Of a DNA stretch of 64,000 nt, positions 21,337 to 61,890 are shown in pieces. Position 1 is the first letter of the stretch; the number at the start of each line of letters is the position of its first letter. Under the pieces are notes generated by a model, which was given only the letters and a program-made list of their open reading frames with translations, was not told the DNA's origin and did not search any database. The stretch comes from Escherichia coli (lineage in GTDB: Bacteria > Pseudomonadota > Gammaproteobacteria > Enterobacterales > Enterobacteriaceae), in NCBI RefSeq assembly GCF_029227855.1, contig NZ_CP074356.1; one strand, 5' to 3'. A program made the translations under genes and the position numbers.

Positions 21337-22362
21337 ATGCTTATTTACAATACAATATTTGTCTTTTTATCATTTCTTGCACTTTTAGATTTAAGTCATA
21401 AAAAAAATTTGTTATTTTTTTTATTTCCTTGTTTTATATTACTACTGTTAACTGCTATTCGTGGTAATGGAGGAGATGATTTTTATGTGTATGAAAAATA
21501 TTTTAACGCTCTTCCTAATGAAATTTTTAACTATGGATATGGTTATTATAGTTTAAATATGTTTGTTAAAAATTTTGGAGAGTATCCTTTTTTTATTATC
21601 ATTTCATCAATAATATGCATAACTCTTCAGGCAATTTTTATTTATCGTGAGACTGAAAAACCAACTCTGGTTTTGTTTTTATTTTATTCAACTAGCTTTT
21701 TATGGTTGGATTTTATTTTAATTAGGCAGTCAATTTCCGTTGGTTTTTTTATTTTGGCAATATCATTTTTCAAAAATAATAAAAAAATTTTTGCCTGTCT
21801 GTTTTTGATTCTATCTTCATTATTTCATGAGACCGCTATTTTTGCTGGAGTAGTTTTTTATATTTTATACAGAGCCGAGAAGGCAGGTTTTCTTTTTACA
21901 ATTGGCTCGGTATTAATTATTGCACCATTTTTATCTGATATAATCACTATCATAAATGATATGACGATAAAAAATAATAATATAACTCTCTATCTGGAGC
22001 AGCGTACCTTACCAAGCATTGCAAATGTAATTGAGTTAACAATAGCATTTGTTGCATTTTATATAATTAATAAAAATTCCGTGTTTAGAGAGAGTAATGA
22101 GTATAAAATATATAAAAGTATACTATATTCTTCACTATGCATACTATTATTGTCTTATACAATCCCATCATTGGCTAGATTCCTAGAATTTTTTCGTTTT
22201 TTTTACTTCATTTTAGTAGTTAGAATGCTAATGCAATTTAATGTGAGAAGTAGATATCTTTTTTTTGTAATTATACTAGCGTACTGTTTTATGAGACTTA
22301 ATAGCTTCATAAATCAATTTGATTCTGGTTTTGATTATATTTATAATGGAAAAATACTGTGA
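21337..22362 (+). CDS. wzy: Putative O-antigen polymerase Wzy (EpsG-like polytopic membrane protein)
   Basis: Very hydrophobic AT-rich ORF; N-terminal RGNGGDDFYVYEKYF resembles the EpsG/Wzy family; ATG at 21337 chosen over the TTG at 21298. Confidence 0.55.
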   Translation: MLIYNTIFVFLSFLALLDLSHKKNLLFFLFPCFILLLLTAIRGNGGDDFYVYEKYFNALPNEIFNYGYGYYSLNMFVKNFGEYPFFIIISSIICITLQAIFIYRETEKPTLVLFLFYSTSFLWLDFILIRQSISVGFFILAISFFKNNKKIFACLFLILSSLFHETAIFAGVVFYILYRAEKAGFLFTIGSVLIIAPFLSDIITIINDMTIKNNNITLYLEQRTLPSIANVIELTIAFVAFYIINKNSVFRESNEYKIYKSILYSSLCILLLSYTIPSLARFLEFFRFFYFILVVRMLMQFNVRSRYLFFVIILAYCFMRLNSFINQFDSGFDYIYNGKIL

Positions 22363-23228
22363 CTATATTATTTTCTGTTATTACTCCTACCTATAATAGG
22401 GCAGATGAGTTAAGCTCATTGTTCAAAAGTCTTAATAATCAAGAGGGTATCGAATTCGAATGGGTGATAATTGATGATGGTTCTGAAGATCATACACAAC
22501 AACAAGTTAATGACTTCAAAAAACATAATAAAAACATCACAGATATAAAATATTTTTATCAAGAGAATAAAGGTAAAAATTCTGCTGTAATTAGAGGGAT
22601 TCAGAATGCTTCCGGCGATTATATTGTGGTGATTGATAGCGATGATTATTTATTGGATGATGCTTTAATAAGAGTAAAAAATATATTAGATGAAGAGAGT
22701 GTTAATGGCGATGATAAAATAATTGGCATTTCAGGTGTTAAAGTTAAAAGTGATTTCACACCTGTAAGTTATATTAGCAACTCTTCGGCATTGCGAATGA
22801 GTCATTATGAGTGGTTTTATAAGTTTCAGCGGTTAGGTGATCGGATTGACTTTTATAAAGCCCGAGTGCTTAAAGAGAAAATATTTAATGCATTTCCAAA
22901 GGAAAAGTTTATTACAGAAGACGCATATTGGTTGGACCTCGTTGGGGAAAAAATTTTCATAAATGAACCGTTATTAGTAATAAAATATTTAGAGGGAGGG
23001 CTTAGTTCAAGTTACTCATTACTCCTGCGAAACAGTCCTTTTGGAACATCATATTATTATTATATTCTATTAATTAATGCTGATAATTTTAAAACAAAAC
23101 TTAAAGCATCATTATTGATGATGTACTATATATTTGTTACCATATTAAAAAATAGTAATATAGTAATTGGGTTATTGTCACTCATGTTATTTCCAATCTT
23201 ATGTATAATAAAATTCTTTCGAAGCTAA
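22359..23228 (+). CDS. Glycosyltransferase family 2 (O-antigen)
   Basis: 289 aa; SVITPTYNRADEL and DSDD motifs typical of GT2; GTG start overlapping the wzy stop. Confidence 0.75.
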   Translation: MTILFSVITPTYNRADELSSLFKSLNNQEGIEFEWVIIDDGSEDHTQQQVNDFKKHNKNITDIKYFYQENKGKNSAVIRGIQNASGDYIVVIDSDDYLLDDALIRVKNILDEESVNGDDKIIGISGVKVKSDFTPVSYISNSSALRMSHYEWFYKFQRLGDRIDFYKARVLKEKIFNAFPKEKFITEDAYWLDLVGEKIFINEPLLVIKYLEGGLSSSYSLLLRNSPFGTSYYYYILLINADNFKTKLKASLLMMYYIFVTILKNSNIVIGLLSLMLFPILCIIKFFRS

Positions 23229-24406
23229 GAAACACTATTCTTCCTTGTTTCACTCTAGGAACGTCGACGATTTTTTTCTTTGCGATAGGTTTCTTCTTTG
23301 GTATAAATGAAAAATCTGATTTTATATTATTTACGATTACTTTACTTTCAACCATTGGAACTATTCTTCAAATTTCTTGGTATGGATTGTTACCTCGTTT
23401 GAGTTCGAGTTCAAGCTTAAAATTTTTAGGTTATATTATTTCTAATGGTTTTATCTACTGTTTGATCATAAATACCCTACCATTTGTGATTTTAACTCTG
23501 AACTTTACAAACTTTTTTTTTGCAGGGTGTCTCTACTCTTTATTTTTCCAACTGCATCAGTATCTTAAGAATGTTTTTGTTTATCTTGGGCGGCTTAAAG
23601 CATTTTATATTTTTGATGCCATCGGCTATGCCATATGTGTTATAAGTATTACTGTGTTCCAAAAATATCTATTACATTCAAACCCTCAGGATTTATTTGT
23701 TCTGCTTTCGTTATGTTGGCTTTTAATAGTAATTGGTGAGGTCGTACATCTTAAACTATATATTAATTATGACATATCTGTAAAGCCTGTTTATGTATGT
23801 ATTATTCCAACATGGAAAACAAGGATTGCAAACAGTGGTTTTATTGTGAAAGATCTTTTAACTGCGTATGCGCTTAATATACTTGCGCCGGTAGGCGGTT
23901 TAACTATATATTCATACGCAAGTAAGATTTCAACAGCTGTTTTTCAATTATTCTCTCAATATAAAGTAAATGCTTGGGTGGGCAGCATAAGAAAAAAAAG
24001 GTTAAGTGAAGTAGAATACGGTGATATAAAAAAAGTGTCATTATCTTCTTCAATTGATTTTTGTATTTTTCAGATCGTTGCATGGCTTTGTATCTTACCT
24101 ATTATATTATATAATGGCACAAATATAAATATTGAATGGTATGTATTAAGTATTATTACTGGTGGATTACTATACTTGATACAATCAATGGAACAGCCTT
24201 ATGCTAGATTTATTTATATGTCACGACATTTTACCGATATTGCCATCGCAGATGGAATAAATTTTATTATTTATATGGTTTTCTTTTCATATGGATTGTT
24301 AATGTTAAATGTATATTATCTATTTTTAGGTATTATATTAGCTCAATTATGTTCACTAGTTACTTATTCTTTATTTTGCAAGAGGTTGTTTAGGAATGAT
24401 ACCTAA
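23201..24406 (+). CDS. wzx: Putative O-antigen flippase Wzx (polytopic membrane protein)
   Basis: 401 aa hydrophobic ORF with many predicted TM segments; position within O-antigen cluster; the Wzx/Wzy assignment between the two membrane proteins is inference. Confidence 0.5.
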   Translation: MYNKILSKLRNTILPCFTLGTSTIFFFAIGFFFGINEKSDFILFTITLLSTIGTILQISWYGLLPRLSSSSSLKFLGYIISNGFIYCLIINTLPFVILTLNFTNFFFAGCLYSLFFQLHQYLKNVFVYLGRLKAFYIFDAIGYAICVISITVFQKYLLHSNPQDLFVLLSLCWLLIVIGEVVHLKLYINYDISVKPVYVCIIPTWKTRIANSGFIVKDLLTAYALNILAPVGGLTIYSYASKISTAVFQLFSQYKVNAWVGSIRKKRLSEVEYGDIKKVSLSSSIDFCIFQIVAWLCILPIILYNGTNINIEWYVLSIITGGLLYLIQSMEQPYARFIYMSRHFTDIAIADGINFIIYMVFFSYGLLMLNVYYLFLGIILAQLCSLVTYSLFCKRLFRNDT

Positions 24407-25052
24407 AATAATACATTACTGTTGGTTCGGGGGCGGGGATAAACCTGCTTTAGTTAAAAAATGTATGGGGACATGGGAAAAAGTCTTGCCTGGTTGGGAT
24501 ATTATTGAATGGAACGAAGATAATTCGCCAGTATCAGTTCCTTATGTAAAAAATGCGTTAGAAGATAAACGATATGCATTTGCTGCTGATTATGTAAGAT
24601 TCTATGCGCTAAAAACCATGGGAGGAGTTTATCTTGATACTGATATGGAATTGATCAAAGATATTTCTCCGCTTTTGAATAATAAATTCTTTACAGCGAA
24701 AGAATCAGAGGAGCTTATTAATGCAGCAATAATGGGGAGTGAAAAAGATGGGAGATTTGTCAATTTAGTAATCCAAGAATTACAATTGCGCACAGGACAT
24801 ACTTACGAATCTATACCAAAAATACTTACTGATATATTTAATACAGGAAATGGATTTAAAGATGAAACAACCATTTATGATAAGGAATATTTTTATCCTT
24901 ATAATCCCTTTGATAATAAACGAAATGAAGTTAAACAACTTTTCTATTGTGATATAACTCCTCATACTTATGCCATTCATCACTGGCAACAAAGTTGGCA
25001 CTATACATTTCTTGAACGGGTTATTAACAGAATAAGGATGCTTATAAAGTGA
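24396..25052 (+). CDS. Glycosyltransferase, GT32-like sugar-binding family (DXD motif)
   Basis: 218 aa; IIHYCWFGG N-terminus and YLDTDME motif. Confidence 0.7.
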   Translation: MIPKIIHYCWFGGGDKPALVKKCMGTWEKVLPGWDIIEWNEDNSPVSVPYVKNALEDKRYAFAADYVRFYALKTMGGVYLDTDMELIKDISPLLNNKFFTAKESEELINAAIMGSEKDGRFVNLVIQELQLRTGHTYESIPKILTDIFNTGNGFKDETTIYDKEYFYPYNPFDNKRNEVKQLFYCDITPHTYAIHHWQQSWHYTFLERVINRIRMLIK

Positions 25053-25819
25053 GTGGAAATAAATTAATAAGCATAATTATGGCATCAAATAAAATAGATG
25101 AGTTTCTACCTCTGGCAATAAACTCAATTCTTGAACAAACATATCAAAATATCGAAGTGATTTTTGTTGCTAATGGTGATAAAGCTCACTGTATTAGTTT
25201 GTATATAAAAAATTTTTTTAAAGATGAGCGAATCAAAATTTATGAAACACCAATAGGCCAACTATCACATGCGCTTAACCTCGCTATTTCTAACGCATCG
25301 GGTGATTATATTGCCCGCATGGATGCTGATGACATTAGTTTACCTGAGCGATTAACTAAACAGTTGGAATATTTAAGGTCACATAATTTAGATATGGTAG
25401 GTTCGGATATAATTCACATAGATACAAATGGAGAAGTTATTGGGATTAAACATTATCCCAAAGGGTTAAATAAAATTAACAAACAATTGTATTTTAGGAA
25501 TACTTTTTCGCATAGCACTATACTAATCAAAAAAAAAATACTCATTTCAGCGAGAGGCTACAATGCTGGATTTAATTCAGAGGACTATGATCTCTGGTTA
25601 AGATTAAGACGGAAGAATATCAAATGGGATAATATGGAGGAATGCCTCTTAAAATATCGTATACATAGTGCATCTACACAAAGGAAGAGATTGGGTTACG
25701 CCGAAGTCGCGGGTTATTCTCTACGTGAATTTTTATTACGTTTCTCATTTATTGGTATTTTTTCTGTTTTAATTCATATTGTTAAAGTTTATATTAAATC
25801 ATCTTCTCATGAAGAATGA
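25049..25819 (+). CDS. Glycosyltransferase family 2 (O-antigen)
   Basis: 256 aa; GT2-like N-terminus and DADD motif; GTG start overlapping the upstream stop. Confidence 0.7.
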   Translation: MSGNKLISIIMASNKIDEFLPLAINSILEQTYQNIEVIFVANGDKAHCISLYIKNFFKDERIKIYETPIGQLSHALNLAISNASGDYIARMDADDISLPERLTKQLEYLRSHNLDMVGSDIIHIDTNGEVIGIKHYPKGLNKINKQLYFRNTFSHSTILIKKKILISARGYNAGFNSEDYDLWLRLRRKNIKWDNMEECLLKYRIHSASTQRKRLGYAEVAGYSLREFLLRFSFIGIFSVLIHIVKVYIKSSSHEE

Positions 25820-26010
25820 TTTATATTTTAGGATAATTAACTATTTAAATTAGAATCATTTGAGCAAACTTAGGTAACTCTATATAATACACAGCATTGC
25901 AAATGAGTAACATATTGGAATAGCCATTCAATGGTAATATTACAAATTGCTTTAATAATAATGGATCATTTAGCTATGGTGCAATATTTTCTTCTTGCGG
26001 AATTTTACCC

Positions 26011-27129
26011 ATGAAAATACTTCTAATAGGAAACCTCTCTGATACTATTGTATTATTCAGAGAGAAGTTAATAAGAGAGTTGATTAAAAAAAATATCACG
26101 GTTTATACATTAACGATGGATTCTAATCAAGAAAACTTCAACATCATTGCCAGCTACGGGGCCAAACCTGATTCATACTCTTTTTCTCGTTCAGGTACAA
26201 ATCCTTTTTCTGATATTTGGGATACATACAAATTAAATAAAAAAATAAAAAAAATAAAACCTGACGTTGTTCTTTCTTTTTTTCCAAAACCTGTTATTTA
26301 TGGTTCTTTAGCTGCTAAAATAGCAGGGGTGAAAAAAATATTTAGTCTCTTGGAAGGACTTGGTTTTTGCTATACGAATAATTCTAGTCCAATTAGTCTC
26401 AAAAGGAAGATATTAAAATGTATACAAACAATGCTATACAGAATTAGCTTGCCATTATGTAATAAAGTTTTTTTCTTAAACAAGGATGATTTTAATGATC
26501 TCATTATTGATAATAAAATAACCATAAAGAATTATGAAATAATTGGTGGAATTGGTGTTAATTTAGAAGAGTACAGTTATAAGCAACCAAAGATTGATAA
26601 AATACATTTTGGGATGGTTTCGCGATTACTAGTCGAGAAAGGTATTCGCGAATTTGTTTTGGCCGCGAGCCAGGTGAAAAAAAAATTTCCTGAGGTCGAA
26701 TTTAGTATTGCTGGCGCAATTGATGATAATCCTGGTGGTATAACCGAAGATGAGATAAAAAAATGGGAATCAGAGGGGGTTGTCAAATTTTTAGGTCAAG
26801 TTTCTAATGTTAAAAGTTATTTATCTAATATCTCTGTTTTCGTTTTGCCATCTTACCGAGAAGGCGTACCAAGAAGTACTCAAGAAGCGATGGCTATTGG
26901 GCTTCCAATAATTACAACTAATGTTCCTGGTTGTCGTGATACAATTATCAATATGGTAAATGGAATCATGATCCCACCATTTGATATTCAGTCTCTAGCG
27001 GACGCAATGGTATTTTTTATACAAAACCCTCAGAGTATAACAATAATGGGTAGAGAAAGTAGAATAATTGCAGAGAAAAAGTTTAATGAAATAGAAGCCG
27101 CGAATAAATTACTTAAATTAATAATCTAA
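26011..27129 (+). CDS. Glycosyltransferase family 4 (GT-B fold, O-antigen)
   Basis: 372 aa; C-terminal EGVPRSTQEAMAIGLPII resembles the GT4 EX7E region. Confidence 0.75.
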   Translation: MKILLIGNLSDTIVLFREKLIRELIKKNITVYTLTMDSNQENFNIIASYGAKPDSYSFSRSGTNPFSDIWDTYKLNKKIKKIKPDVVLSFFPKPVIYGSLAAKIAGVKKIFSLLEGLGFCYTNNSSPISLKRKILKCIQTMLYRISLPLCNKVFFLNKDDFNDLIIDNKITIKNYEIIGGIGVNLEEYSYKQPKIDKIHFGMVSRLLVEKGIREFVLAASQVKKKFPEVEFSIAGAIDDNPGGITEDEIKKWESEGVVKFLGQVSNVKSYLSNISVFVLPSYREGVPRSTQEAMAIGLPIITTNVPGCRDTIINMVNGIMIPPFDIQSLADAMVFFIQNPQSITIMGRESRIIAEKKFNEIEAANKLLKLII

Positions 27130-27159
27130 TATATAGATTAACATCTACCGGAGTGTTTT

Positions 27160-28179
27160 ATGGCTATTCTTGTTACTGGCGGAGTTGGTTATATCGCTTC
27201 GCACACTATTATAACTTTACTAGAAAAAGGTGAAGAAGTTATAATACTTGATAATTTATCAAATTCATTCTACGAATCTTTGCATAAAGTTAAAAAAATT
27301 ACCGGGTATGATAGTCGATTTTATAGAGGTGATATACTTGACAAAGAGCTCTTACGCAAAATATTCAAAGAAAACACTATTTCTGACGTAATTCATTTTG
27401 CAGGCTATAAATCTGTAAAAGAATCCATTTCTCACCCATTGAAATACTATCAAAATAACGTTTCTGGTACATTGTCATTAATAGATGCGATGGGGGAGGC
27501 TTGTGTAAAAAGTTTGATTTTTAGCTCATCAGCTACAGTATATGGTGAACCAGAAAGAATACCTTTAGATGAAAATTGCAGAATTGGAGGTACAACGAAT
27601 CCATACGGCACGTCCAAGTTATTCGTAGAAAAATTCCTTATTGATTATTCACATGCATTCCCTGATTTTAGAACTACCATCTTAAGATATTTCAACCCTG
27701 TCGGTGCTCATCCATCTGGTGAAATAGGGGAAGATCCCAATGGTATACCTAACAACTTAATGCCATATATATGTCAAGTTGCTATAGGGAAGCAACAACA
27801 CCTCACTATCTTTGGTAGCGATTATCCAACAAAAGATGGTACAGGTGTTCGTGATTATATCCATGTCATGGATCTTGCTGAAGGGCATGTTGCAGCGTTA
27901 GAACATCGAAATGAAGGAGCAAATTGCAAGATCTATAATCTCGGGACGGGCACAGGATACTCAGTACTGGAACTTGTTGATGCATTTCAAAGAGTTACTG
28001 CACGTAAAGTTCCATATGTATTCAGTAAACGACGACCTGGTGATATTGCTGAGTGTTGGTCTGATCCTTCTAAGGCTTATAGGGAACTTGGATGGAAAGC
28101 GAAGCGTGGGTTGGAAGAAATGGTTCGAGATGCCTGGAATTGGCAACAAAAGAATCCGAACGGTTATATAAAAGCATGA
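27160..28179 (+). CDS. gne: UDP-hexose 4-epimerase of the GalE/Gne family (likely UDP-GlcNAc/UDP-Glc 4-epimerase)
   Basis: 339 aa; Rossmann GGVGYIASH, catalytic YGTSK motif; located immediately upstream of gnd. Confidence 0.85.
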   Translation: MAILVTGGVGYIASHTIITLLEKGEEVIILDNLSNSFYESLHKVKKITGYDSRFYRGDILDKELLRKIFKENTISDVIHFAGYKSVKESISHPLKYYQNNVSGTLSLIDAMGEACVKSLIFSSSATVYGEPERIPLDENCRIGGTTNPYGTSKLFVEKFLIDYSHAFPDFRTTILRYFNPVGAHPSGEIGEDPNGIPNNLMPYICQVAIGKQQHLTIFGSDYPTKDGTGVRDYIHVMDLAEGHVAALEHRNEGANCKIYNLGTGTGYSVLELVDAFQRVTARKVPYVFSKRRPGDIAECWSDPSKAYRELGWKAKRGLEEMVRDAWNWQQKNPNGYIKA

Positions 28180-28297
28180 ATGCTCAATGGTATTTTTGTC
28201 AATCTTAAAAATTATCGATTTTATGTATCCTGAGTTAACATAGCATCTACATTGACCTGAGTTATGTTTCGCAGTATCACCCTGACAGGAGTAAACA

Positions 28298-29760: not shown

Positions 29761-30470
29761 TGCACAGAAAACCCCCAGCTAGGCTGGGGGTTCCGGAAAG
29801 CTTTCAGCTTTGAGCCAGTTATTAAAACCCCTTTTGATTTGTTAAAACACTTTGCGGTCTGGCAACTGCAAGTGTCAAACAAGAAATCAAAAGGGGGTCC
29901 CAATGGGGAACGAAAAGAGCTTAGCGCACACCCGATGGAACTGTAAATATCACATAGTTTTTGCGCCAAAATACCGAAGACAGGTGTTCTACAGAGAGAA
30001 GCGTAGAGCAATAGGCAGTATTTTGAGAAAGCTGTGTGAGTGGAAAAGCGTACGGATTCTGGAAGCTGAATGCTGTGCAGATCATATCCATATGCTTGTG
30101 GAGATCCCGCCCAAAATGAGCGTATCCGGCTTTATGGGATATCTGAAAGGGAAAAGCAGTCTGATGCTTTACGAGCAGTTTGGTGATTTGAAATTCAAAT
30201 ACAGGAACAGGGAGTTCTGGTGCAGAGGGTACTACGTCGATACGGTGGGTAAGAACACGGCGAAGATACAGGATTACATAAAGCACCAGCTTGAAGAGGA
30301 TAAAATGGGAGAGCAGTTATCGATTCCCTATCCGGGCAGCCCGTTTACGGGCCGTAAGTAACGAAGTTGGATGCAAATGTCAGATCGTGTGCGCCTGTTA
30401 GGGCGCGGCTGGTAAGAGAGCCTTATAGGCGCATTTGAAAAACCTCCGGCTATGCCGGAGGATATTTATT
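29761..30470 (+). mobile_element. IS200-type insertion sequence (IS200/IS605 family), boundaries approximate
   Basis: About 0.7 kb with a single Y1 HUH transposase ORF; left-end hairpin acccccagctaggctggggg and right-end hairpin cctccggctatgccggagg; no terminal inverted repeats, as expected for IS200. Confidence 0.75.
29903..30361 (+). CDS. tnpA: IS200 transposase TnpA (Y1 HUH)
   Basis: 152 aa from MGNEKSLAHTRWNCKYHIVFAPKYRRQVFY; HIHMLVEIPP (HUH) motif; essentially the recalled Salmonella IS200 TnpA. Confidence 0.92.
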   Translation: MGNEKSLAHTRWNCKYHIVFAPKYRRQVFYREKRRAIGSILRKLCEWKSVRILEAECCADHIHMLVEIPPKMSVSGFMGYLKGKSSLMLYEQFGDLKFKYRNREFWCRGYYVDTVGKNTAKIQDYIKHQLEEDKMGEQLSIPYPGSPFTGRK

Positions 30471-39186: not shown

Positions 39187-40086
39187 TCACTCCATCATCT
39201 TCTCAATCGGCAGCACCAGGATTGAACTGGCACCCAGCGCTTTCAGTTTTTCCATCGTTTCCCAGAACAGGGTTTCGCTACTGACCATGTGCATCGCTAC
39301 GCGCTGTTGATCACCTGCCAGCGGCAGAATAGTTGGGCGTTCGGCACCTGGCAGCAGGGCGATGACTTCATCCAGACGTTCAGTCGGTGCGTGCATCATG
39401 ATGTATTTTGATTCGCGCGCCTGGATCACGCCCTGAATACGGGTCAGCAGCTTGTCGATCAGTTGCTGTTTAGATTCTTCCATTTCGCCATCGCGCTGGA
39501 TCAGGCAGGCTTTCGAGCGGTAGATAACTTCGACTTCGCGCAGGCCGTTAGCTTCCAGCGTGGCACCGGTGGAAACCAGATCGCAAATCGCATCCGCCAG
39601 TCCGGCGCGCGGGGCGACTTCAACAGAACCGTTCAGTAAGCAGGATTTAAAAGAGATGCCTTTCTGGTCGAGATAACGCTTGAGCAGGTGAGGATAAGAG
39701 GTGGCGATACGTTTACCGTTTAAGGAGAGCGGACCGTCCCAGGCTTCATCAACCGGCGTTGCCAGCGAAAGGCGGCAGCCGCCGAAATCCAGTCGACGCA
39801 GGGTAAAGTAGCGCGGATCTTCACCCTGGGCTCGGCGGTTAAGCAGCTCTTCTTCCAGCACGTTTTCGCCGATAATCCCAAGGTCTACCACGCCGTCCAT
39901 TACCAGACCGGGAATGTCGTCGTCACGCACGCGCAGAATATCAATCGGCATGTTTTCTGCCATCGCGATCAGGCGCTGGGTGTGAAGATTGATTTTAATG
40001 CCACAGCGCGCCAGCAATTCGCGTGAGTCATCACTTAAACGGCCGGATTTCTGCATAGCTATGCGTAAACGAGTGTTGTCTGTCAT
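39187..40086 (-). CDS. hisG: ATP phosphoribosyltransferase
   Basis: 299 aa from [21 protein letters not shown]; the ORF track start at 40125 is an upstream extension. Confidence 0.95.
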
Positions 40087-40134
40087 TTTCTTATTCCTCT
40101 TTAAACCTGTCTGAACCGTTATCAACAGCGCAAT

Positions 40135-40170
40135 AAAAAAGCCCCCGGAAGGTGATCTTCCGGGGGCTTT
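40135..40170 (-). terminator. his operon attenuator (leader terminator)
   Basis: On the minus-strand transcript: agcccccggaag-aucacc-uuccgggggcu stem followed by a U run; lies between hisL and hisG. Confidence 0.85.
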
Positions 40171-40231
40171 CTCATGCGTTCATGCACCACTGGAAGATCT
40201 GAATGTCTTCCAGCACACATCGCCTGAAAGA

Positions 40232-40282
40232 CTAGTCAGGATGATGGTGATGATGGTGGTGTTTAAATTGAACGCGTGTCAT
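40232..40282 (-). CDS. hisL: his operon leader peptide
   Basis: Reverse complement encodes MTRVQFKHHHHHHHPD-stop, with seven consecutive His codons. Confidence 0.95.
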   Translation of the reverse strand: MTRVQFKHHHHHHHPD

Positions 40283-40529
40283 AAAAGTCTCTGTGAATGT
40301 TTATTCAACTGATGTCTTTTAACCTAAACCACTTTCACGTTAGAAAGCAAGGGCTTTTTTATATATTTTATGGCGATGGATTTGTTTAATGAATGAGCGG
40401 GGAAAGGAGGGGGCTAAGAGGACTGTCCTCTAACCTGACGGCACCAAAAATAGCGAAGCCTGGATTTTCGTCTCACTGACAATATCTTGATCTACAAACT
40501 AATTAATAAATAGTTAATTAACGCCCATC

Positions 40530-40564: not shown

Positions 40565-40816
40565 ATGCGTACAATTAGCTACAGCGAAGCGCGTCAGAAT
40601 TTGTCGGCAACAATGATGAAAGCCGTTGAAGATCATGCCCCGATCCTTATTACTCGTCAGAATGGAGAGGCTTGTGTTCTGATGTCACTCGAAGAATACA
40701 ACTCGCTGGAAGAGACGGCTTATCTACTGCGCTCCCCCGCTAACGCCCGGAGATTGATGGACTCAATCGATAGCCTGAAATCAGGCAAAGGAACGGAAAA
40801 GGACATTATTGAGTGA
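40565..40816 (+). CDS. yefM: Antitoxin YefM (type II TA system)
   Basis: 83 aa; [55 protein letters not shown]. Confidence 0.95.
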
Positions 40817-41067
40817 AACTAATCTGGTCTGAGGAGTCATGGGATGATTATCTGTACTGGCAGGAAACAGATAAGCGAATTGTTAAAAAGATCATTGAAC
40901 TTATCAAAGATACCCGCAGAACACCATTTGAAGGTAAGGGGAAGCCAGAACCCCTGAAGCATAATTTGTCAGGCTTCTGGTCCCGACGCATTACAGAGGA
41001 GCACCGTCTGGTATACGCGGTTACCGACGATTCACTGCTCATTGCAGCATGTCGTTATCATTATTGA
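40813..41067 (+). CDS. yoeB: Toxin YoeB (ribosome-dependent mRNA interferase)
   Basis: 84 aa; start overlaps the yefM stop; C-terminal HRLVYAV...YHY. Confidence 0.95.
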
Positions 41068-42949: not shown

Positions 42950-43029
42950 AGAAAAATTATTATGACAAGCCTCTCATTCTCTTGTCATTTCCCCCCCATT
43001 TAGGCACAATGCGCCGCTGTCAAAAAATG

Positions 43030-43068
43030 ACTAAAAACCGACGTTTCATCAGCGTCGGTTATTTTTTG
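43030..43068 (+). terminator. Rho-independent terminator downstream of yeeY
   Basis: aaccgacgtttcatcagcgtcggtt hairpin followed by attttttg. Confidence 0.7.
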
Positions 43069-43215
43069 CTTCAAACCAATCATTCATACCAAGAGGCCGG
43101 GCTTCGTACCGGATAGATATTTACTAAAAATCGACAGTTGTTGTCGCTGAGGAATCCAAAAAAATGGGGCAATTTTTTGCTTACGCGACGGTTATCACCG
43201 TAAAGGAGAATGACC

Positions 43216-49686: not shown

Positions 49687-50745
49687 GTGCGTGCCGATAA
49701 GTCATTAAGCCCGTTTGAAATCCGGGTATACCGCCATTACCGCATTGTGCATGGTACTCGGGTCGCGCTGGCATTCCTGCTCACTTTTCTCATTATCCGC
49801 CTGTTTACTATCCCGGAAAGCACCTGGCCGCTGGTCACCATGGTGGTGATTATGGGGCCAATCTCGTTCTGGGGGAACGTTGTCCCTCGTGCCTTCGAAC
49901 GTATTGGCGGTACGGTGTTGGGGTCGATTTTAGGTCTTATCGCTCTACAACTGGAGTTAATCTCGTTACCGCTGATGTTAGTCTGGTGCGCGGCGGCCAT
50001 GTTCCTTTGCGGTTGGCTGGCGCTGGGTAAGAAACCGTATCAAGGTTTATTGATTGGGGTGACGCTGGCAATTGTTGTTGGTTCCCCGACAGGTGAAATT
50101 GATACGGCGTTATGGCGAAGCGGCGATGTGATCCTCGGCTCTTTACTGGCAATGTTGTTTACCGGTATCTGGCCACAACGGGCGTTCATCCACTGGCGCA
50201 TTCAACTGGCAAAAAGTCTGACCGAGTATAATCGGGTCTATCAATCTGCATTCTCACCGAACTTACTCGAACGCCCGCGTCTGGAAAGCCATCTACAAAA
50301 ACTCCTGACCGATGCCGTGAAAATGCGTGGGCTGATTGCGCCCGCCAGCAAAGAAACTCGTATTCCAAAATCGATATATGAAGGTATCCAGACCATTAAC
50401 CGCAATCTGGTTTGTATGCTGGAGTTGCAAATCAATGCATACTGGGCCACGCGCCCCAGCCATTTCGTGTTATTGAACGCGCAAAAACTTCGTGATACCC
50501 AGCACATGATGCAGCAAATACTGCTGAGCCTTGTTCATGCGCTGTACGAAGGTAATCCGCAGCCGGTTTTTTCCAATACGGAAAAATTGAACGATGCTGT
50601 GGAAGAGCTGCGTCTGTTGCTTAATAACCACCATGACCTGAAGGTTGTGGAAACACCAATCTATGGTTATGTGTGGCTGAACATGGAAACGGCGCATCAG
50701 CTTGAGTTGCTATCGAATCTGATTTGCCGGGCCTTGCGCAAATAA
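49687..50745 (+). CDS. yeeA: Inner membrane protein YeeA (FUSC-like)
   Basis: 352 aa; GTG start; hydrophobic N-half. Confidence 0.88.
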   Translation: MRADKSLSPFEIRVYRHYRIVHGTRVALAFLLTFLIIRLFTIPESTWPLVTMVVIMGPISFWGNVVPRAFERIGGTVLGSILGLIALQLELISLPLMLVWCAAAMFLCGWLALGKKPYQGLLIGVTLAIVVGSPTGEIDTALWRSGDVILGSLLAMLFTGIWPQRAFIHWRIQLAKSLTEYNRVYQSAFSPNLLERPRLESHLQKLLTDAVKMRGLIAPASKETRIPKSIYEGIQTINRNLVCMLELQINAYWATRPSHFVLLNAQKLRDTQHMMQQILLSLVHALYEGNPQPVFSNTEKLNDAVEELRLLLNNHHDLKVVETPIYGYVWLNMETAHQLELLSNLICRALRK

Positions 50746-50916
50746 TTCCTGAACTTCAGAATCATCTTGCTGCTGCTTCGATTCAGCAAGGATAAAGGGT
50801 ATGATAGTGAAAAGGGATAAAAGCATTGTCATCTGCGGCAGCTATGAGTAATGTTGGCCCTATCGAATAGCGGTTGCTTAAACGAATCCGACTCTCACAT
50901 TATCAGGGGTATAAAA

Positions 50917-51246
50917 ATGGAAACTACCAAGCCTTCATTCCAGGACGTACTGGAATTTGTTCGTCTGTTCCGTCGTAAGAACAAACTGCAACGTGAAATT
51001 CAGGACGTTGAGAAAAAGATCCGTGACAATCAGAAGCGCGTCCTGCTGCTGGACAACCTGAGTGATTACATCAAGCCGGGGATGAGCGTTGAAGCAATCC
51101 AGGGCATCATCGCCAGCATGAAAGGTGACTATGAAGATCGTGTTGACGATTACATCATCAAAAATGCCGAGCTCTCCAAAGAACGCCGCGATATCTCCAA
51201 AAAGCTGAAAGCTATGGGCGAAATGAAAAACGGCGAAGCGAAGTAA
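50917..51246 (+). CDS. yeeX: UPF0265/DUF496 protein YeeX
   Basis: 109 aa from [41 protein letters not shown]; the ORF track start at 50851 is an extension. Confidence 0.92.
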
Positions 51247-51258
51247 TTCCTGTTTTAT

Positions 51259-51300
51259 TCAATGAGGGTTGCCCGGCAACCCTCATTGCTCATTGTTTCT
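51259..51300. terminator. Terminator hairpin between convergent yeeX and pduV
   Basis: aatgagggttgcc-cggcaaccctcatt perfect inverted repeat followed by a T-rich stretch on the plus strand. Confidence 0.65.
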
Positions 51301-51346
51301 TTTCTGTGTATCACCGTCATCATTCCCATCTGATAACCTATTGAAA

Positions 51347-51790
51347 TTAGCGACAGCCTTCTTCTGTATGCAGCAAGGCAAAAAGTTCTGCAACTCCATT
51401 GTTATTAACCGCACTGGTTACTAACACATTGTGCGCTCCAGCTTCCCGTAACCAACTTTTCACCAAAGATATTTGTTCCATGCTGGCTAAATCTGCTTTG
51501 GTGACTACTCCAATGACCGGGCGATTCATTGACGAGGTAAAGCCTGGCGAAAAAGGGGACCACGGTGCGTCCGCATTAAGCACCAGGGCGATAATGTCCG
51601 CTTCGCAGGCGCTGACCAACAGAGCACTGTAGAGGCTGCGGTTTTCGAGGTATTCGCCTGGTGTATCAATGGTGGTCGGGGACCAGACGATTGCCTGCGT
51701 TTTCTGATAATGAATATTTTCGCCACGCAGACATTGCGTGAGTGACGTTTTTCCGCACTGGCTGGGGCCGATGAGCATCATACGTTGCAT
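51347..51790 (-). CDS. pduV: PduV, EutP/PduV-family small GTPase associated with the Pdu microcompartment
   Basis: 147 aa; P-loop [10 protein letters not shown]; matches recalled Salmonella PduV. Confidence 0.88.
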
Positions 51791-51794
51791 AACG

Positions 51795-52145
51795 TCAGGT
51801 CCGCGTAATGGGGCAGGCGGTAAAGCGCATCATTTCACCCAGCGTACGGGTAACCTGGCTAAGTGCATATTCAATGGCAGAAACATCACCAGTCAGCACT
51901 ACGGCACCGGTAAAACGATCAAGAAAACCGATCTCTACAGCGCCTGATTTTGTGGCGATATCACATGCGATGATAGATGCTTCGCTGGGGGTAATTGTCA
52001 GAATGCCAATAGCAGAAACGGTGTCTGGTAAACCCAATTTCTTAAACAGATCCTTCCCTGGATTGGCGATGACATGTGCCAGCGTGACCTGCTTACCAGG
52101 GACATATTCCTGAATCATCCGTTCAGTTGTGTGCTGAGTTGTCAT
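51795..52145 (-). CDS. pduU: PduU, BMC shell protein (circularly permuted BMC domain)
   Basis: 116 aa from [32 protein letters not shown]; near-identical to recalled Salmonella PduU. Confidence 0.9.
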
Positions 52146-52699
52146 TATCCCTCCACCATCTGACGCCACATGGCTTCATGTGGACGGGCAATCACCGACC
52201 GATAGACCAACAAACCTTTTTCTCCCGCACGCTCGCTGGCGACAGAGACCGCGTTATTAACATCTGAAATATCGCCAGCAACCACCATGTAGCATTTACC
52301 GCCAATGCCAAAAGCCATATGCACGCGAACAAGAATGACATTCGCAGCTTTGACAGCACAATCGGCAGCGTCAATGCAGGCGGCGACACTCCAGGTTTCG
52401 ACTACGCCGACAGCCCGGTGCTGTTCAACTTGGTTCAGTCCGCTGGTTGCAGAAAGGAGGCTGGGATGAATATTCGGCAGGACAAGACTGTCGACCAGCA
52501 TTTCACCAGCAAGGGAAGCACCGCTGTTGATGGCCTGTTGCACCGCGCCCACATCGCCACCGAGCATCAGCAGAAATTTTCCGGGGCATAGCGTTTTGCT
52601 GACCAGTAACTCAACGTTGGCGCTTTTCAGCATGGCGTCGCCGGTTTCCATCCCTTTCGCGATACTGCTAAGTTCTAAAATACCTACCGCTTTCGACAT
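52145..52699 (-). CDS. pduT: PduT, tandem-BMC-domain shell protein
   Basis: 184 aa with two BMC domains; [29 protein letters not shown]. Confidence 0.9.
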
Positions 52700-52701
52700 C
52701 G

Positions 52702-54045
52702 TTAACCTCTCACAAGCGTAATCGCGTTTTCTGTCACATCGCTGACCATGCCATCAATACTGGCATGAATGGGGGCACCTAATGTGCCGTGTGGAATTTG
52801 ACCTACACATTGCCCATGAACGACGCGATCGCCTTTTTGTACACACGCAATTGCGCTGGCACCGATGTGCTGGCGTAACAATAACGTCACTTTTTCGGTC
52901 TGAGGCACCTGTTCAGACAATGGCGCATCCTGATACCACGGGGTTAAGCCAAGTCTGGTTACCAGCCGTTTTACGGGAATCAGTCGATAATTTGCCATGG
53001 GATCTGCAGGATTTAAGGTACCTTCGTAACGGAGATTTTGTGCGCGTAATTCTTGCTTAAGCAGGCGGTTTATGCGCATTGGTGAAATTCCTACCGGACA
53101 GGCGACGCTGGCGCAGACGTTGCACTCCGAACAGGTGAGCGCCGTCAGTAACAGTTGTGGCGTAGCGAGCTGTTGGTAGTTAACCGCACGTACTAATAAA
53201 TGGGGTGCCAGTTCGTGACCGATTAAATGACGTGGGCAGAGATCGGTACACAAGCGGCATTGCTCACAAACAGTTTTCGCGACGGCAAGTACGCTGCGGT
53301 CATTCTGCATTCGACGTTGGATCAGTGAATGAGAGTTGGGTAAAACCAGCAAGCCGCCAGTGGTTTTGCTGACTGGTGTGTCGAGCGATGTGATCAAACT
53401 TCCCATCATCGGCCCGCCATTGATAAAACCAGGAGCATCCACTGTTGCGCCGCCCGCCAGCGCCAGGACTTCACGTAAAGACATGCCGATGGGGACGGTT
53501 ACCGTTATTGGTTTCGCCACTGCACCATTAACGGTGAGTGTGCGGCGCGTCACTGGATACTGTTGCTCGACGGCTCTGGCAATATTAAGTACGGTTTGAA
53601 CATTATTGACCACCACACCGACGTTAACGGGTAATGCAGCGGGTGGAACACGGCGACCAGTTGCCATCCAGATGGTCAGCACTTCGTCTCCTGCGGGGTA
53701 AACGTCGGGCAAAATATGCAGGCGGATATCCGGTGGTAACAGTGGTGTGAGTGCGTTTATTGCCCGTTGATATTTCTCTTTCAGCGCGATGATTCCGCTA
53801 CTGGCCCCGGTGGCTTTCATCGCATAGTGAACACCGCGAAGCAGGCGGCTGGCTTGCTGCGCCATTAACTGTTGATCCACTTTCAACATTGGTTCGCATT
53901 CCGCCGCATTCACCAGGAACGTGTCAACACGCGCTTGTAGCTTAATATGGGTTGGGAAACCTGCGCCGCCAGCACCCACGACACCAGCTGCCTGTACTCG
54001 CTCGCGGATGGTCTGGTCGTCGCAGGAGGTTAACTCGACGTTCAT
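52702..54045 (-). CDS. pduS: PduS, cobalamin reductase (RnfC/NuoF-like flavoprotein with two 4Fe-4S motifs)
   Basis: 447 aa; GAGGAGFP nucleotide-binding motif; Cys clusters [12 protein letters not shown] and [13 protein letters not shown]. Confidence 0.9.
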
Positions 54046-55154
54046 AACAACTCCTCGAGCAGTTCTGCAATAGCGGTGGCATCAGCCGTACGCGGGTTGG
54101 TACGCAACGTTGCATCCGCCAGTGCCGCCTGAACCATATCTGGTATGCGTATTGACCATTCTGCTTTTTTTTCTTTCAGCACATTGGTAAGAGTCGGTAG
54201 CTTACAGGTTGTTTTAAGCTGTTCAATATGTTGAATAAGTATATTCAGGCTGGCGGTGTCATTGGCGTTGTCCGGGCATAAATGGCACGTTTTCGCCAGC
54301 CGGGCGTAGCGTTTGGCAGCGCGCGGATCGCCAGCATTAAAGCGGATAACCGCCGTGAGCAGGAGCGCATTCGCCAGGCCGTGTGGCAGATGAAACTGTC
54401 CGCCGAGTTGATGAGCAATTGCATGGTTTAATCCCAGTCCAGCTTGGCTAAAGGCCATTCCTGCAAGTGTCGATGCATTATGCATTTTGCCACGGGTGGC
54501 GAGACAATCGCCTTTCTTCACTGCAGTGGGCAGGTATTGAAAAACAATTTGCACGGCTTTTTCGACCAGTGCATCCGTGAAGTCGCTGGCGCGGGGAGAA
54601 ACATAAGCTTCAAGCGCATGGGTTAAAACATCCATCCCGGTATTGGCCGTTATCGCCGGTGGCACGCTGACGATCAGAGATGGATCAAGGATCGCGATAT
54701 CCGGATAAAGTGCATTATCGAAAAGGGGATATTTAATCCCTTTCTCAGGATCGCTGATGACACAAGCACTGGTCACTTCGGAACCGGTACCGCTGGTGGT
54801 AGGAATGGCTACGCAGGTTTCAATTTCAATGCCACACTGGCGACCGAACCAGACAATCGCTTTTGCGGCGTCCAGGGCAGAACCGCCGCCAAAACCGATA
54901 ACCACATCCGGGCGTAAAGTCTGCATTTGCGCAATGCCTTTCACCACGGTCTGGATAGTTGGGTCGGGCGTTATTTCGCTAAAAATACTAAGACGATTAC
55001 TGTCGGGCAGCGCCTGATGCAACGTGTTAATGAGTGGTGAGCGTGCCAGAAAGACGTCGCAAATAATCCAGATGTGTTTATGAGAGAAACGGCTAAGTAC
55101 CTTGAGACTTCCCGGTCCGCTGTATAAACGCGTCTGCAGTGAAAAAGTATTCAT
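54042..55154 (-). CDS. pduQ: PduQ, iron-containing 1-propanol dehydrogenase
   Basis: 370 aa; Fe-ADH family glycine-rich region GFGGGSALDAAKA. Confidence 0.9.
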   Translation of the reverse strand: MNTFSLQTRLYSGPGSLKVLSRFSHKHIWIICDVFLARSPLINTLHQALPDSNRLSIFSEITPDPTIQTVVKGIAQMQTLRPDVVIGFGGGSALDAAKAIVWFGRQCGIEIETCVAIPTTSGTGSEVTSACVISDPEKGIKYPLFDNALYPDIAILDPSLIVSVPPAITANTGMDVLTHALEAYVSPRASDFTDALVEKAVQIVFQYLPTAVKKGDCLATRGKMHNASTLAGMAFSQAGLGLNHAIAHQLGGQFHLPHGLANALLLTAVIRFNAGDPRAAKRYARLAKTCHLCPDNANDTASLNILIQHIEQLKTTCKLPTLTNVLKEKKAEWSIRIPDMVQAALADATLRTNPRTADATAIAELLEELL

Positions 55155-55164
55155 TTCCGTTTCT

Positions 55165-56550
55165 CTAGCGAATTGAAAAGCCGCTGGTTAACACGCAGCG
55201 TCGTGAGCGGGCAAAAGTCCGTGCTGACGTTGTCCCTTCTCCGGTCGGTGTTGCAATGGTAAAGGTCGTAAAGCCTTCGCCGCCGACGCCAATACCCGCC
55301 CAGGAGGGGCCGTTTTTGACAAAGATTGAGGTTTGCATAACGCGTGCGGTAAGGTTGAGCCGTGAGACGTTCTGCGAGTGCATAATTGCCGTGTGGTGCA
55401 AGCCGTCTTCCACTTTCAGCGCCAGGGTGAGAGCGCTATCAAAATCGTTGACCTTCACAATGGGCAGCATTGGCATCAGTTGTTCACAAGTAACCCAACT
55501 ATCATTGGCGTCGACAACAGCAATCAGTAGGCGCGGCGCTTTTGCGGGCAAAGGGAGGCCTGCCGCTTCCAGCAAGGCTGATGGGCTTTTCCCAACCAGT
55601 TTTTTGTTGGCGCTACCGTCTGGCAGGCAAATTGCACGCAATTTCTCCGTTTGCTCATAGTTAAGAAGAAGCGCGCCAAAACTTTGCATCTGCTGAATTA
55701 AATAATCTGCCACTGATGCCACGACAATCAGGCTTTTTTCAGCAATACACGGCAGGTTGTAATCAAATGAAGCGCCGTTGATGATGTCCTCGGCGGCTTT
55801 CACAATATCCGCCGTTTCATCGACGATGCACGGAGGGTTACCCGCTCCGGCACCAATCACTTTCTTGCCACTTTTCATTCCCATGGCGACGATCCCCGGA
55901 CCGCCGGTAATCGCCAGAACGCTGATTTTAGGGTGCGCCATCATCTGTTCGGTTGCAGCAAAGGTCGGTTCAGATACGGTAACGATCAGGTTATGAATGC
56001 CACTACAACGAAACGCGATGTCTTCGATTGTGGTAATCAGTTTTAACGAAACGTATTTGGCTCCCGGGTGTGGACTGAAGTAGACGCTATTACCTGCTGC
56101 CAGCATGCTGATGCTGTTGTTAATGATGGTTTCCGTGGGGTTGGTGCTTGGCGTGACCGAGCCAATAACCCCAAACGGGGAGTATTCAAACAAAACCATG
56201 CCACCATCACCGGTTAGTGCAGTGGTGGTTAAATCTTCAATTCCTGGCGTGTTATCAAGTGCCGCTTTGTTTTTTAGGTACTTATCTTCTTTATTTCCCA
56301 TCCCCGTTTCTTTGGCGCTTTCTTCTGCCAGTTCGGTCAGGCGGGGTATTAATTCTTCGCGAATGGCGCTGATAATGGCGCTACGGGTTTTAAGCGGGCA
56401 CTGTTGAAAGCGTAAAAAGGCCTGGTGTGCTGCGCAGACCGCTTCATCAACAGTCTGGAAAATAGCGTTTCTTTGCATTCGTTGCGTAGCGGGGGCAAGC
56501 TGCTCACGCAGAATATTGCGGATCAGTGTTTCTAATTCAGAGTTATTCAT
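55165..56550 (-). CDS. pduP: PduP, CoA-acylating propionaldehyde dehydrogenase
   Basis: 461 aa aldehyde dehydrogenase with N-terminal amphipathic extension MNNSELETLIRNILREQL. Confidence 0.92.
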   Translation of the reverse strand: MNNSELETLIRNILREQLAPATQRMQRNAIFQTVDEAVCAAHQAFLRFQQCPLKTRSAIISAIREELIPRLTELAEESAKETGMGNKEDKYLKNKAALDNTPGIEDLTTTALTGDGGMVLFEYSPFGVIGSVTPSTNPTETIINNSISMLAAGNSVYFSPHPGAKYVSLKLITTIEDIAFRCSGIHNLIVTVSEPTFAATEQMMAHPKISVLAITGGPGIVAMGMKSGKKVIGAGAGNPPCIVDETADIVKAAEDIINGASFDYNLPCIAEKSLIVVASVADYLIQQMQSFGALLLNYEQTEKLRAICLPDGSANKKLVGKSPSALLEAAGLPLPAKAPRLLIAVVDANDSWVTCEQLMPMLPIVKVNDFDSALTLALKVEDGLHHTAIMHSQNVSRLNLTARVMQTSIFVKNGPSWAGIGVGGEGFTTFTIATPTGEGTTSARTFARSRRCVLTSGFSIR

Positions 56551-57554
56551 TGGTTTACTCCCACGTTAATTGCCGCCATTGCGCTTTGGGCAATATCCAT
56601 GTCTTGTTCAACGCTACCACCGCTGATGCCAAGCCCCCCGAGCAATATTCCGTCACGCCAGAGGGGGAAGCCGCCACCAAAGGTGACGACTTTGCCTTGC
56701 ATATGGCTTTCGAGCCCGTAAAGCGGCGCGCCGGGTTGCACGGTATCAGCAAGTTTGTGGGTTGCCGTTTTCATCGCCACGGCAGTCCAGGCTTTTTTCG
56801 GTGCCAGTTCACTGCTGACCAACAGGGCATCAGGCATCCGCCAGGTAACACTTTCTGTTCCGTTGGCATCAACAATGCTGATGACAACGGGAATATGCAG
56901 TTCATCCGCGCGCATTGCCGCACTACGAATGAGCTGGTGAAGATCCTGAAAAGTGAGCGGCATTGTGCGTTCCTTCAATGCTGGTGTGTGGTTGGCTTTG
57001 TGATAACGTTTTGTGATTTCCTGAATTATCAGGTTTTGATGAGCGACGTTGTCTTCCACGCGGGCGAGGGCATACAGGCAATCGGAAAGTCGGTTGATAT
57101 AGTGCAGCAAAACATTCCGGACGGTGATTTCCGTTGTCAGTTCAACCAGACGTCTTTCAGCACGTCGAGCCACCGTGCGGGCGAAATGCATACGGCTTGC
57201 AGCTTCACATCGCCCAGGCAGAATGAAGCTGTGAACTGGGGGGACGGCGTTCATTGCGCTATCGATCGCGTTTTCCAGCGCGGCAATTTCTTCCGTACCG
57301 ATGTAACGCAGCTGCGCTGACGGCTGTTCGCTTTCACTGGCAAGTTCGGCGCTAAACCAAAATATCTGTTGTTGAATGGCTTCCAGTAAGATGCGATGGC
57401 TTTCGATGGCGGTGGCGCAATAACACAGACTGAGTGTCGCGTTCAGTTCATCCAGCGTGCCATAGGTTTCGACACGTAGATGAGTTTTGCTGACGCGCTG
57501 TCCGGTAAATAAAGACGTACTTCCTGAATCACCTGTTCGGGTATAAATTGCCAT
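56547..57554 (-). CDS. pduO: PduO, ATP:cob(I)alamin adenosyltransferase with C-terminal DUF336 domain
   Basis: 335 aa; MAIYTRTGDSGSTSLFTGQRVSK N-terminus typical of PduO-type ATR. Confidence 0.92.
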   Translation of the reverse strand: MAIYTRTGDSGSTSLFTGQRVSKTHLRVETYGTLDELNATLSLCYCATAIESHRILLEAIQQQIFWFSAELASESEQPSAQLRYIGTEEIAALENAIDSAMNAVPPVHSFILPGRCEAASRMHFARTVARRAERRLVELTTEITVRNVLLHYINRLSDCLYALARVEDNVAHQNLIIQEITKRYHKANHTPALKERTMPLTFQDLHQLIRSAAMRADELHIPVVISIVDANGTESVTWRMPDALLVSSELAPKKAWTAVAMKTATHKLADTVQPGAPLYGLESHMQGKVVTFGGGFPLWRDGILLGGLGISGGSVEQDMDIAQSAMAAINVGVNQ

Positions 57555-57565
57555 CTTTCAGCTCC

Positions 57566-57841
57566 TTAGCGCGAAAGCGTATCGACAATGCCGACCACTG
57601 CCAGGTCGATGGCCTCGTTAGGGCCGGAAAACACATGTCTGGCGCTGGAACCACTGCTGAGGAGTACCAACTCACCAACGCCTGCGCCGACTGAATCAAC
57701 GGCAACTTCGTCGCCGGTTAATGGCGTGAGAGGCAGTTCGCCGTCAGCACTGACCCGGCGAACCAGCAGCAGTTTTTTCCCGATCAGAGATGGTGATTTT
57801 TGCGTGGATACTACCGCGCCAGTGACTCGAGCCAGATGCAT
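57566..57841 (-). CDS. pduN: PduN, BMC vertex (pentamer) protein of the EutN/CcmL family
   Basis: 91 aa; [17 protein letters not shown]. Confidence 0.9.
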
Positions 57842-57844
57842 AGG

Positions 57845-58336
57845 TTACTCCTGCCTAATTAACTGAATATTTCGGGTAATTGCCGCTTCACGAGCCAGTG
57901 CGGTCACACAACATTTCCGCTGTAACACCAGTATTCCCGAGCTTAACTGTGCGATATCGGCATAACTTAAAAGTCGATCACGATGAAGGTAGATCGGTTG
58001 CCCTTGTTCGTCGCACCAGCTTAGCGGTAGACGGGCGAGAGTCTTCAATTCAATGGCGTTCAGGAAATGACGCTGCAACGACAATTGAATGTGCATTCCC
58101 CAGGCTAACGCTTCGTGTATCTGGATTGCTGCTCGATCTGACGTTTCGTTCTCCGCAAGTTGTCGCAGCAGCGGCAGATCGACATATCGGATTTGTAATG
58201 ACGCATACTGATGAACGCTCTCTTGAACGCTGGCGTCTCGCAGTTGAAAAACAGTCAGCACGAGTGCTTTTCTCGCACGTTGTTTAAGGCGAAAAACCAC
58301 CTCGTCAACAATACGTTGCATCAGCATGTTATTCAT
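57845..58336 (-). CDS. pduM: PduM, microcompartment structural protein
   Basis: 163 aa; position between pduL and pduN; length matches recalled Salmonella PduM. Confidence 0.8.
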   Translation of the reverse strand: MNNMLMQRIVDEVVFRLKQRARKALVLTVFQLRDASVQESVHQYASLQIRYVDLPLLRQLAENETSDRAAIQIHEALAWGMHIQLSLQRHFLNAIELKTLARLPLSWCDEQGQPIYLHRDRLLSYADIAQLSSGILVLQRKCCVTALAREAAITRNIQLIRQE

Positions 58337-58965
58337 GGCACTGACACCAGTGTGGCAAAAACGTCAGGGCTATCAGCGCCTGCGGCGTTGGCCTCATCGG
58401 TATCAATATGCATTTCAAGACGCATATCCGGAGAGACGCGAACAGCGACGTTTTCGAATATCAGTCGTCGCTCACCACCTTCAATGGCAACCGCCACTTT
58501 ATCGCCATGCGTAACGCCATAAATCAGGGCATCCAGCGGAGACATATGAATATGCCGTTGCGCGACAATGACGCCAGATGTGATCTCCAGTTCCGCAAAT
58601 GGGCTTATCAAACGAATCCCCGGAGTGCCGCTGAGATCGCCTGACATGCGTAGCGGGGCGGTGATCCCTAACGTTCTGGCGTCCGTCCGGGAAATTTCCA
58701 CCTGGCTTGCATTGCGTAGCGGCCCCAACAAGCGAACGTTGTGCAATTTGCCTTTTGGTCCCTCCAGCGTAACAACCTGTTCAGCAGCGAATTGGCCAGG
58801 TTGCATTAACGGCTTTTTCTCGCTAATCGGTTGTTCAGGAAAAAGACGCAAATAATCCGCTGTTGAAAGATGAATATGGCGACTGGAAACGCCCAGTGGG
58901 ATAGGGCGCTCGCGCATCTCATCCAGAATCTGGCTCACTGTTTCCTGCAGGGTTTGTTTATCCAC
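58333..58965 (-). CDS. pduL: PduL, phosphate propanoyltransferase
   Basis: 210 aa; N-terminal MDKQTLQETVSQILDEM amphipathic peptide followed by PduL/EutD-type domain. Confidence 0.9.
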   Translation of the reverse strand: MDKQTLQETVSQILDEMRERPIPLGVSSRHIHLSTADYLRLFPEQPISEKKPLMQPGQFAAEQVVTLEGPKGKLHNVRLLGPLRNASQVEISRTDARTLGITAPLRMSGDLSGTPGIRLISPFAELEITSGVIVAQRHIHMSPLDALIYGVTHGDKVAVAIEGGERRLIFENVAVRVSPDMRLEMHIDTDEANAAGADSPDVFATLVSVP

Positions 58966-58967
58966 TG

Positions 58968-61881: not shown

Positions 61882-61890
61882 AGTTCGTCC

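Follow-up and report, generated by a model that had tools for sequence, protein, structure and literature searches.

The segment described here carries hisL, the leader of the his operon of Escherichia coli, together with its attenuator, and works by ribosome-mediated transcription attenuation, a reading to which we assign a probability of about 98%. It lies on the minus strand of the window, by which we mean the whole 64-kb stretch of DNA that was analysed, and its features are collected in Table 1. The element is already known in full, as this is a copy of the reference E. coli element; because the copy is identical to the K-12 reference, it brings no new biology and its value is one of annotation only. 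As an annotation, the hisL attenuator fixes the start and the orientation of the his operon, which runs on the minus strand from hisL at 40282 to the end of hisIE at 33053.

Identity of the element

The Rfam family RF00514 (His_leader) matches positions 40256-40133 on the minus strand, where its 131.6 bits (E = 1.4e-21) exceed the gathering score, which is 49. The match covers model positions 1-126 of 126, and no non-canonical pairs are flagged in it. A 401-nt query around the element matches 5423 of 5426 complete E. coli genomes, several of them at 100% identity, and the annotation under the match lists hisL (his operon leader peptide), the His leader region and hisG. Between a point upstream of the -35 hexamer and the end of the U-tract, the window has the same sequence as E. 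coli K-12 MG1655 (hisL = b2018) and encodes the same peptide. The 340 nt compared contain three substitutions, all outside the regulatory element: one upstream of the promoter, one just past the U-tract and one 5 nt ahead of the start codon of hisG. The initial annotation had called the region a textbook case of his attenuation, a view supported by the full-length Rfam match, the RefSeq annotation, the K-12 identity and the two sets of pairings, which were recovered by folding and are conserved. The his attenuator is among the founding examples of transcription attenuation, and decades-old experiments on the identical K-12 sequence and on that of Salmonella bear attenuation out. For his attenuation, PMC9291695 and PMC10989985 cite Johnston and Roth 1981, Barnes and Tuley 1983 and Chan and Landick 1993.

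Table 1. Positions in the window of the his leader features and of the his genes that follow. The last column gives the share of paired cells in the alignment of 111 leaders or the source of the assignment.
Feature	Position	Strand	Description	Support
Probable his promoter hisLp	40321..40350	(-)	-35 TTGCTT 40350-40345, 18-nt spacer, -10 TAGGTT 40326-40321	
hisL leader peptide ORF	40232..40282	(-)	16 codons + UAG, product MTRVQFKHHHHHHHPD	translation; RefSeq E. coli annotation including K-12 b2018
Run of seven His codons	40241..40261	(-)	CAC CAC CAU CAU CAC CAU CAU; letters CACCACCATCATCACCATCAT	
Helix A:B	40214..40249	(-)	12 pairs, -12.2 kcal/mol	95.8% paired in 111 leaders
his pause hairpin	40240-40223	(-)	CCUGA...UCAGG; inner 5-bp stem of A:B, 8-nt loop	
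Helix C:D	40190..40213	(-)	CUGGAAGA / UCUUCCAG; 8 pairs, -11.0 kcal/mol	98.3% paired in 111 leaders
Helix E:F, attenuator (intrinsic terminator)	40132..40172	(-)	14-bp core AAAGCCCCCGGAAG (40170-40157), loop AUCAC, CUUCCGGGGGCUUU (40151-40138); -29.5 kcal/mol	97.8% paired in 111 leaders
Alternative helix B:C	40205..40232	(-)	GUCUUUCAG (40232-40224) / CUGGAAGAC (40213-40205); 9 pairs including one G-U, -11.8 kcal/mol	98.8% paired in 111 leaders
Alternative helix D:E	40154..40199	(-)	GAUCUUCC (40199-40192) / GGAAGAUC (40161-40154); 8 pairs, -9.9 kcal/mol	94.6% paired in 111 leaders
hisG (ATP phosphoribosyltransferase, 299 aa)	39187..40086	(-)	first structural gene; ATG 146 nt after the hisL stop	
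hisD, C, B, H, A, F, IE	after hisG, down to 33053	(-)		

Leader peptide, promoter and operon

Translation of the minus strand from 40282 to 40232 yields the peptide with seven consecutive His codons that the initial annotation had claimed. The pattern (CAY)x7 has a single match in the window, which is the hisL run itself, and none in 100 dinucleotide-preserving shuffles. The codons of this run are the regulatory ones, at which the ribosome stalls when charged tRNA-His is low (PMC9291695, PMC10989985). The span 40135-40282 given in the initial annotation coincides to the base with the segment that begins at the hisL ATG and closes with the final U of the U6 run; it leaves out the promoter and the transcript start (about 40350-40314) as well as the 48-nt spacer to hisG. 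The orientation of the operon proposed there holds, as hisGDCBHAFI occupy the minus strand in this order between 40086 and 33053. The his operon is not known to have a repressor, and attenuation is its main specific control.

The published leader RNA has a length of 180 nt and ends at the attenuator (PMC10989985). The hexamers assigned to hisLp in Table 1 were read from the sequence, and their position fits this length; they would place the transcript start near 40314-40315, about 32 nt upstream of the hisL ATG. An A/T-rich stretch (40372-40355) lies upstream of the putative promoter. A scan for consensus promoters did not detect hisLp, because each hexamer matches only three of the six consensus positions, and a generic terminator scan did not detect the attenuator, presumably because its stem extends into the U-run. 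The sole hit of the generic promoter and terminator scan, at 39962-39946, is located inside hisG and is not meaningful. On the other side of hisL, the type II toxin-antitoxin genes yefM-yoeB (40565-41067, plus strand) are divergent from it, and the intergenic region of about 280 nt contains both promoters.

Helices of the leader RNA

The leader RNA can form five helices. Three of them, A:B, C:D and E:F, make up the terminated form, and B:C and D:E the antiterminated form. The initial annotation had described a GC-rich terminator hairpin with a U-tract, which is present at 40170-40132 as a G+C-rich stem of 14 bp followed by the U-tract. Beyond its core, E:F is extended by A-U pairs into the U-tract, and the end of the U-run, UUUUUUAUU, lies at 40132. 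This intrinsic terminator comes after the leader ORF and precedes hisG, the first structural gene, whose ATG is 48 nt away. Helix B:C constitutes the first half of the antiterminator conformation. Helix D:E takes up the top of the terminator 5' arm together with its loop and, by sequestering both, is predicted to act as the antiterminator proper.

The inner stem of A:B corresponds to the RNA polymerase pause hairpin, with U40212 as the 3' end of the paused transcript, both reportedly described by Chan and Landick 1993. Both the pause hairpin and the pause-site sequence, CGAUGUGUGCU followed by G, are present and identical to those of K-12. The published description of the his leader gives the identity of the pause hairpin and the pause site (PMC9291695), and the published attenuator has a 14-bp stem and a 5-nt loop, the same as here (PMC10989985). 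A 32-codon ORF with an ATG start at 40220-40122 on the minus strand overlaps segments C to F; it belongs to no family, its sequence is constrained by the RNA structure, and it most likely arose by chance.

Folding of complete and nascent transcripts

For the 185-nt leader the folding energy is -70.4 kcal/mol, and in the comparison with shuffles, none of which was as stable, z = -6.6. In equilibrium folds of the complete leader, even when a ribosome mask lay on any of the His codons or on the stop, the terminator always formed and the antiterminator never did, because E:F contributes -29.5 kcal/mol against about -10 to -12 kcal/mol for each other helix. The folding model thus suggests that the switch between terminator and antiterminator would be purely kinetic and decided before the F arm leaves the polymerase.

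We therefore considered folds of the nascent transcript, for which the RNA was ended at 40152, before the F arm, and mean pair probabilities were calculated under ribosome masks. With no ribosome, A:B (0.97) and C:D (0.92) form, E is unpaired, and B:C and D:E are at 0.0. With His3 or His5 in the ribosomal A site (mask reaching 40241 or 40235), B:C rises to 0.96 and D:E to 0.97-1.0, while A:B and C:D fall to 0. The A site on His7 gives an intermediate state (C:D 0.72, D:E 0.27), and a ribosome on the stop codon gives D:E at 0.96 and C:D at 0.04. The initial annotation had proposed RNA folding as a check, with a lack of alternative pairings as the outcome that would speak against attenuation. 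The alternative pairings were recovered in the nascent folds and are absent from the full-length equilibrium folds; a naive equilibrium fold would seem to argue against attenuation, because the terminator always wins in it.

The ribosome at the stop codon represents the state of plentiful histidine. At equilibrium before the F arm (40152-40219), D:E has -18.4 kcal/mol against -16.0 kcal/mol for C:D, and because D:E is thereby ahead of C:D by 2.4 kcal/mol, the plentiful-histidine branch would depend on the order of synthesis. Helix C:D is complete, at -12.7 kcal/mol, about 30 nt before E exists, and refolding from C:D to D:E faces a barrier of about 13.7 kcal/mol, a crude estimate taken from the best path found. 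We infer that the textbook outcome, in which C:D persists and E:F follows, would be a kinetic trap rather than an equilibrium result.

Proposed course of attenuation

Ribosome-mediated attenuation is the classical account of the his leader (PMC9291695, PMC10989985). That read-through responds in vivo to the level of charged tRNA-His is known from experiments, cited in both papers, on Salmonella and on the K-12 sequence, which equals that of the window. In the window, RNA polymerase would pause at U40212 behind the pause hairpin, such that a ribosome could load on hisL. With little charged tRNA-His available, this ribosome would stall within the run of seven His codons and cover segment A. With A covered, B:C and D:E would pair, the E arm would be unavailable as F emerges, and the polymerase, meeting no terminator, would read into hisGDCBHAFI. 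With ample charged tRNA-His, the ribosome would reach the UAG codon and cover or free A and B; C:D would form first and leave E free to pair with F, and the 14-bp hairpin with its U-tract would terminate transcription 48 nt before hisG. In the absence of any translation, A:B, C:D and E:F would form, which would lead to termination too. Our analysis contributes the sequence identity, the five helices, their mutual exclusivity, the dependence on ribosome position in silico and the conservation, whereas the response to tRNA-His charging, the polymerase pause, and the promoter with its ppGpp control are established knowledge.

Conservation and alternative readings

A DNA-pattern scan of one genome per species, for six His codons followed by Pro-Asp-stop, returned at least 120 loci from Enterobacterales, Aeromonas and Pasteurella. 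The Enterobacterales in the set comprise Escherichia, Citrobacter, Enterobacter, Yersinia, Serratia, Pantoea, Erwinia, Proteus, Photorhabdus, Edwardsiella and others. Among the matches listed, all peptides are of the leader type and their N-termini vary freely (e.g., MTRVQFK, MNFVQTR, MKFTLLKT, MYSIQLN). The C-terminus HHHHHH(H)PD before the stop codon is kept in all listed leaders, as the selection pattern fixes HHHHHHPD-stop, and segment A is thus partly set by the choice of loci. In all 111 loci with enough downstream DNA (of 120 fetched), hisG follows on the same strand, 122-294 nt past the leader stop, and the median gap of 146 nt equals that in the window.

For each of the two conformations, pairs were counted in an alignment of the window with 110 distinct leaders. 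Paired cells amount to 97.2% for the terminated form (36 pairs), against 41-60% in controls with slid partners, and to 96.8% for the antiterminated form (17 pairs), against 40-55%; both contrasts are inflated, as the tested structures were derived from the window sequence, and the sequences are related. Compensatory changes occur in E:F, where both partners have changed in four pairs (61 cells, among them C-G to U-A in 33 sequences and G-C to A-U in 24), and in D:E, where they affect its two outer pairs. Among the 111 aligned leaders, no pair in A:B, B:C or C:D is changed on both sides, and the changes found there are single and wobble-compatible; the near-invariance of the segments leaves little covariation in these helices. 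In 26 sequences, segment C has G in place of A, which converts A-U to G-U in C:D and U-A to U-G in B:C, and both pairings are kept. Such near-invariance would be expected for segments that have two pairing partners and carry a pause signal.

The conservation of segments B to E bears on the proposal that a protein, besides the ribosome, sets the balance between terminator and antiterminator, as a layer added to the classical mechanism and not as its replacement. On the basis of RNA immunoprecipitation and of reporters in E. coli K-12, DnaA has been proposed to bind the leader RNA and to promote attenuation (Yao et al., PMC10989985), and since the window equals K-12 across the whole leader, any proposed boxes occur here too. 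However, these boxes are weak motifs with two mismatches each to the 9-nt consensus, and the authors themselves word the proposal as "possible" and "might bind" (PMC10989985). Nothing in our analysis requires a protein factor, and the double pairing constraints together with the pause signal already explain the conservation of B to E. We consider such a protein layer unlikely, and equally the reading that the his leader RNA does more than sense ribosomes, in that DnaA or factors binding uncharged tRNA-His also bind it and bias it to the terminator. If true, the near-invariance of B to E in Enterobacterales and Aeromonas would partly reflect protein binding, and the DnaA layer would be shared by all his leaders of E. 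coli and not be specific to the window.

A function in trans of the terminated leader transcript of about 180 nt, e.g., as a small RNA, or of the HisL peptide seems very improbable to us. The attenuated leader RNA is presumably abundant, stable and structured, and the sequence of B to E is more conserved than simple pairing needs; yet the overlapping pairings and the pause signal account for this conservation, the freely varying N-terminus among species argues against a function of the peptide, and we found nothing pointing to a function in trans. That the His-codon ORF and the hairpin stand side by side by chance, or that the ORF is untranslated and the hairpin ends an upstream transcript, is hardly conceivable: short ORFs of 16 codons are common, which is a general caution only, but the absence of the seven-His run from all shuffles, the full-length Rfam match and the conservation of the ORF, the five helices and hisG across Enterobacterales, Aeromonas and Pasteurella oppose chance, and conservation and synteny already refute such a juxtaposition; yefM-yoeB, being divergent on the opposite strand, leaves no co-directional transcript to end.

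Surroundings of the his operon in the window

The window covers the his-gnd-O-antigen-colanic acid region of the E. coli chromosome, in the order colanic-acid genes, galF, JUMPstart, O-antigen cluster, gnd, IS200C, ugd, wzzB, his operon, hisL, yefM-yoeB and pdu. In the colanic-acid region, the Rfam "algC RNA" matches at 11505-11554 (plus strand, 77.3 bits), just upstream of cpsG-matching sequence. The JUMPstart RNA (21158-21196) is followed by the O-antigen cluster of about 7 kb, the whole extending over 21158-28280. This cluster shows no match to the O7 cluster of strain NRZ14408 and corresponds to the O23-family wzy and wzx, glycosyltransferases and galE annotated in strain JNEC-KY178. The gnd gene is 95.5% identical to that of NRZ14408 and the his side 99%, the recombination mosaic that is usual for this locus.

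Between gnd and ugd, an insertion of about 700 bp (29763-30465), missing from NRZ14408, is a copy of IS200C, with tnpA annotated in JNEC-KY178; the IS200C query has a median of 2 and up to 35 matches per E. coli genome. The Rfam hit to the Hfq-binding RNA STnc490 at 29770-29893 is the 5' end of this IS200 copy and not a free-standing sRNA gene. Beyond hisL, the Rfam family STnc240 matches at 42995-43069 (plus strand, 68.2 bits), just past the 3' end of yeeY. The end of the window (50736-64000) carries the pdu (propanediol-utilisation) microcompartment operon, pduC to pduV, adjoining tmaR and yeeA, with 99.9% identity to NRZ14408.

Comparison with other amino-acid leaders

The his attenuators of E. 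coli K-12 and Salmonella Typhimurium have the same architecture as that of the window, with A:B, C:D and E:F opposed to B:C and D:E, at the same site upstream of hisG. The same logic, a short ORF rich in cognate codons followed by mutually exclusive hairpins, is found in trpL with the trp attenuator and in the other enterobacterial leaders pheL, thrL, leuL and ilvL. The trp and other amino-acid leaders also share the intrinsic terminator and the pause hairpin that synchronises ribosome and polymerase (PMC9291695, PMC10989985). Whereas the trp leader uses four segments, 1 to 4, and two regulatory codons, the his leader has seven consecutive regulatory codons and six segments, labelled A to F, which form two stacked alternatives.
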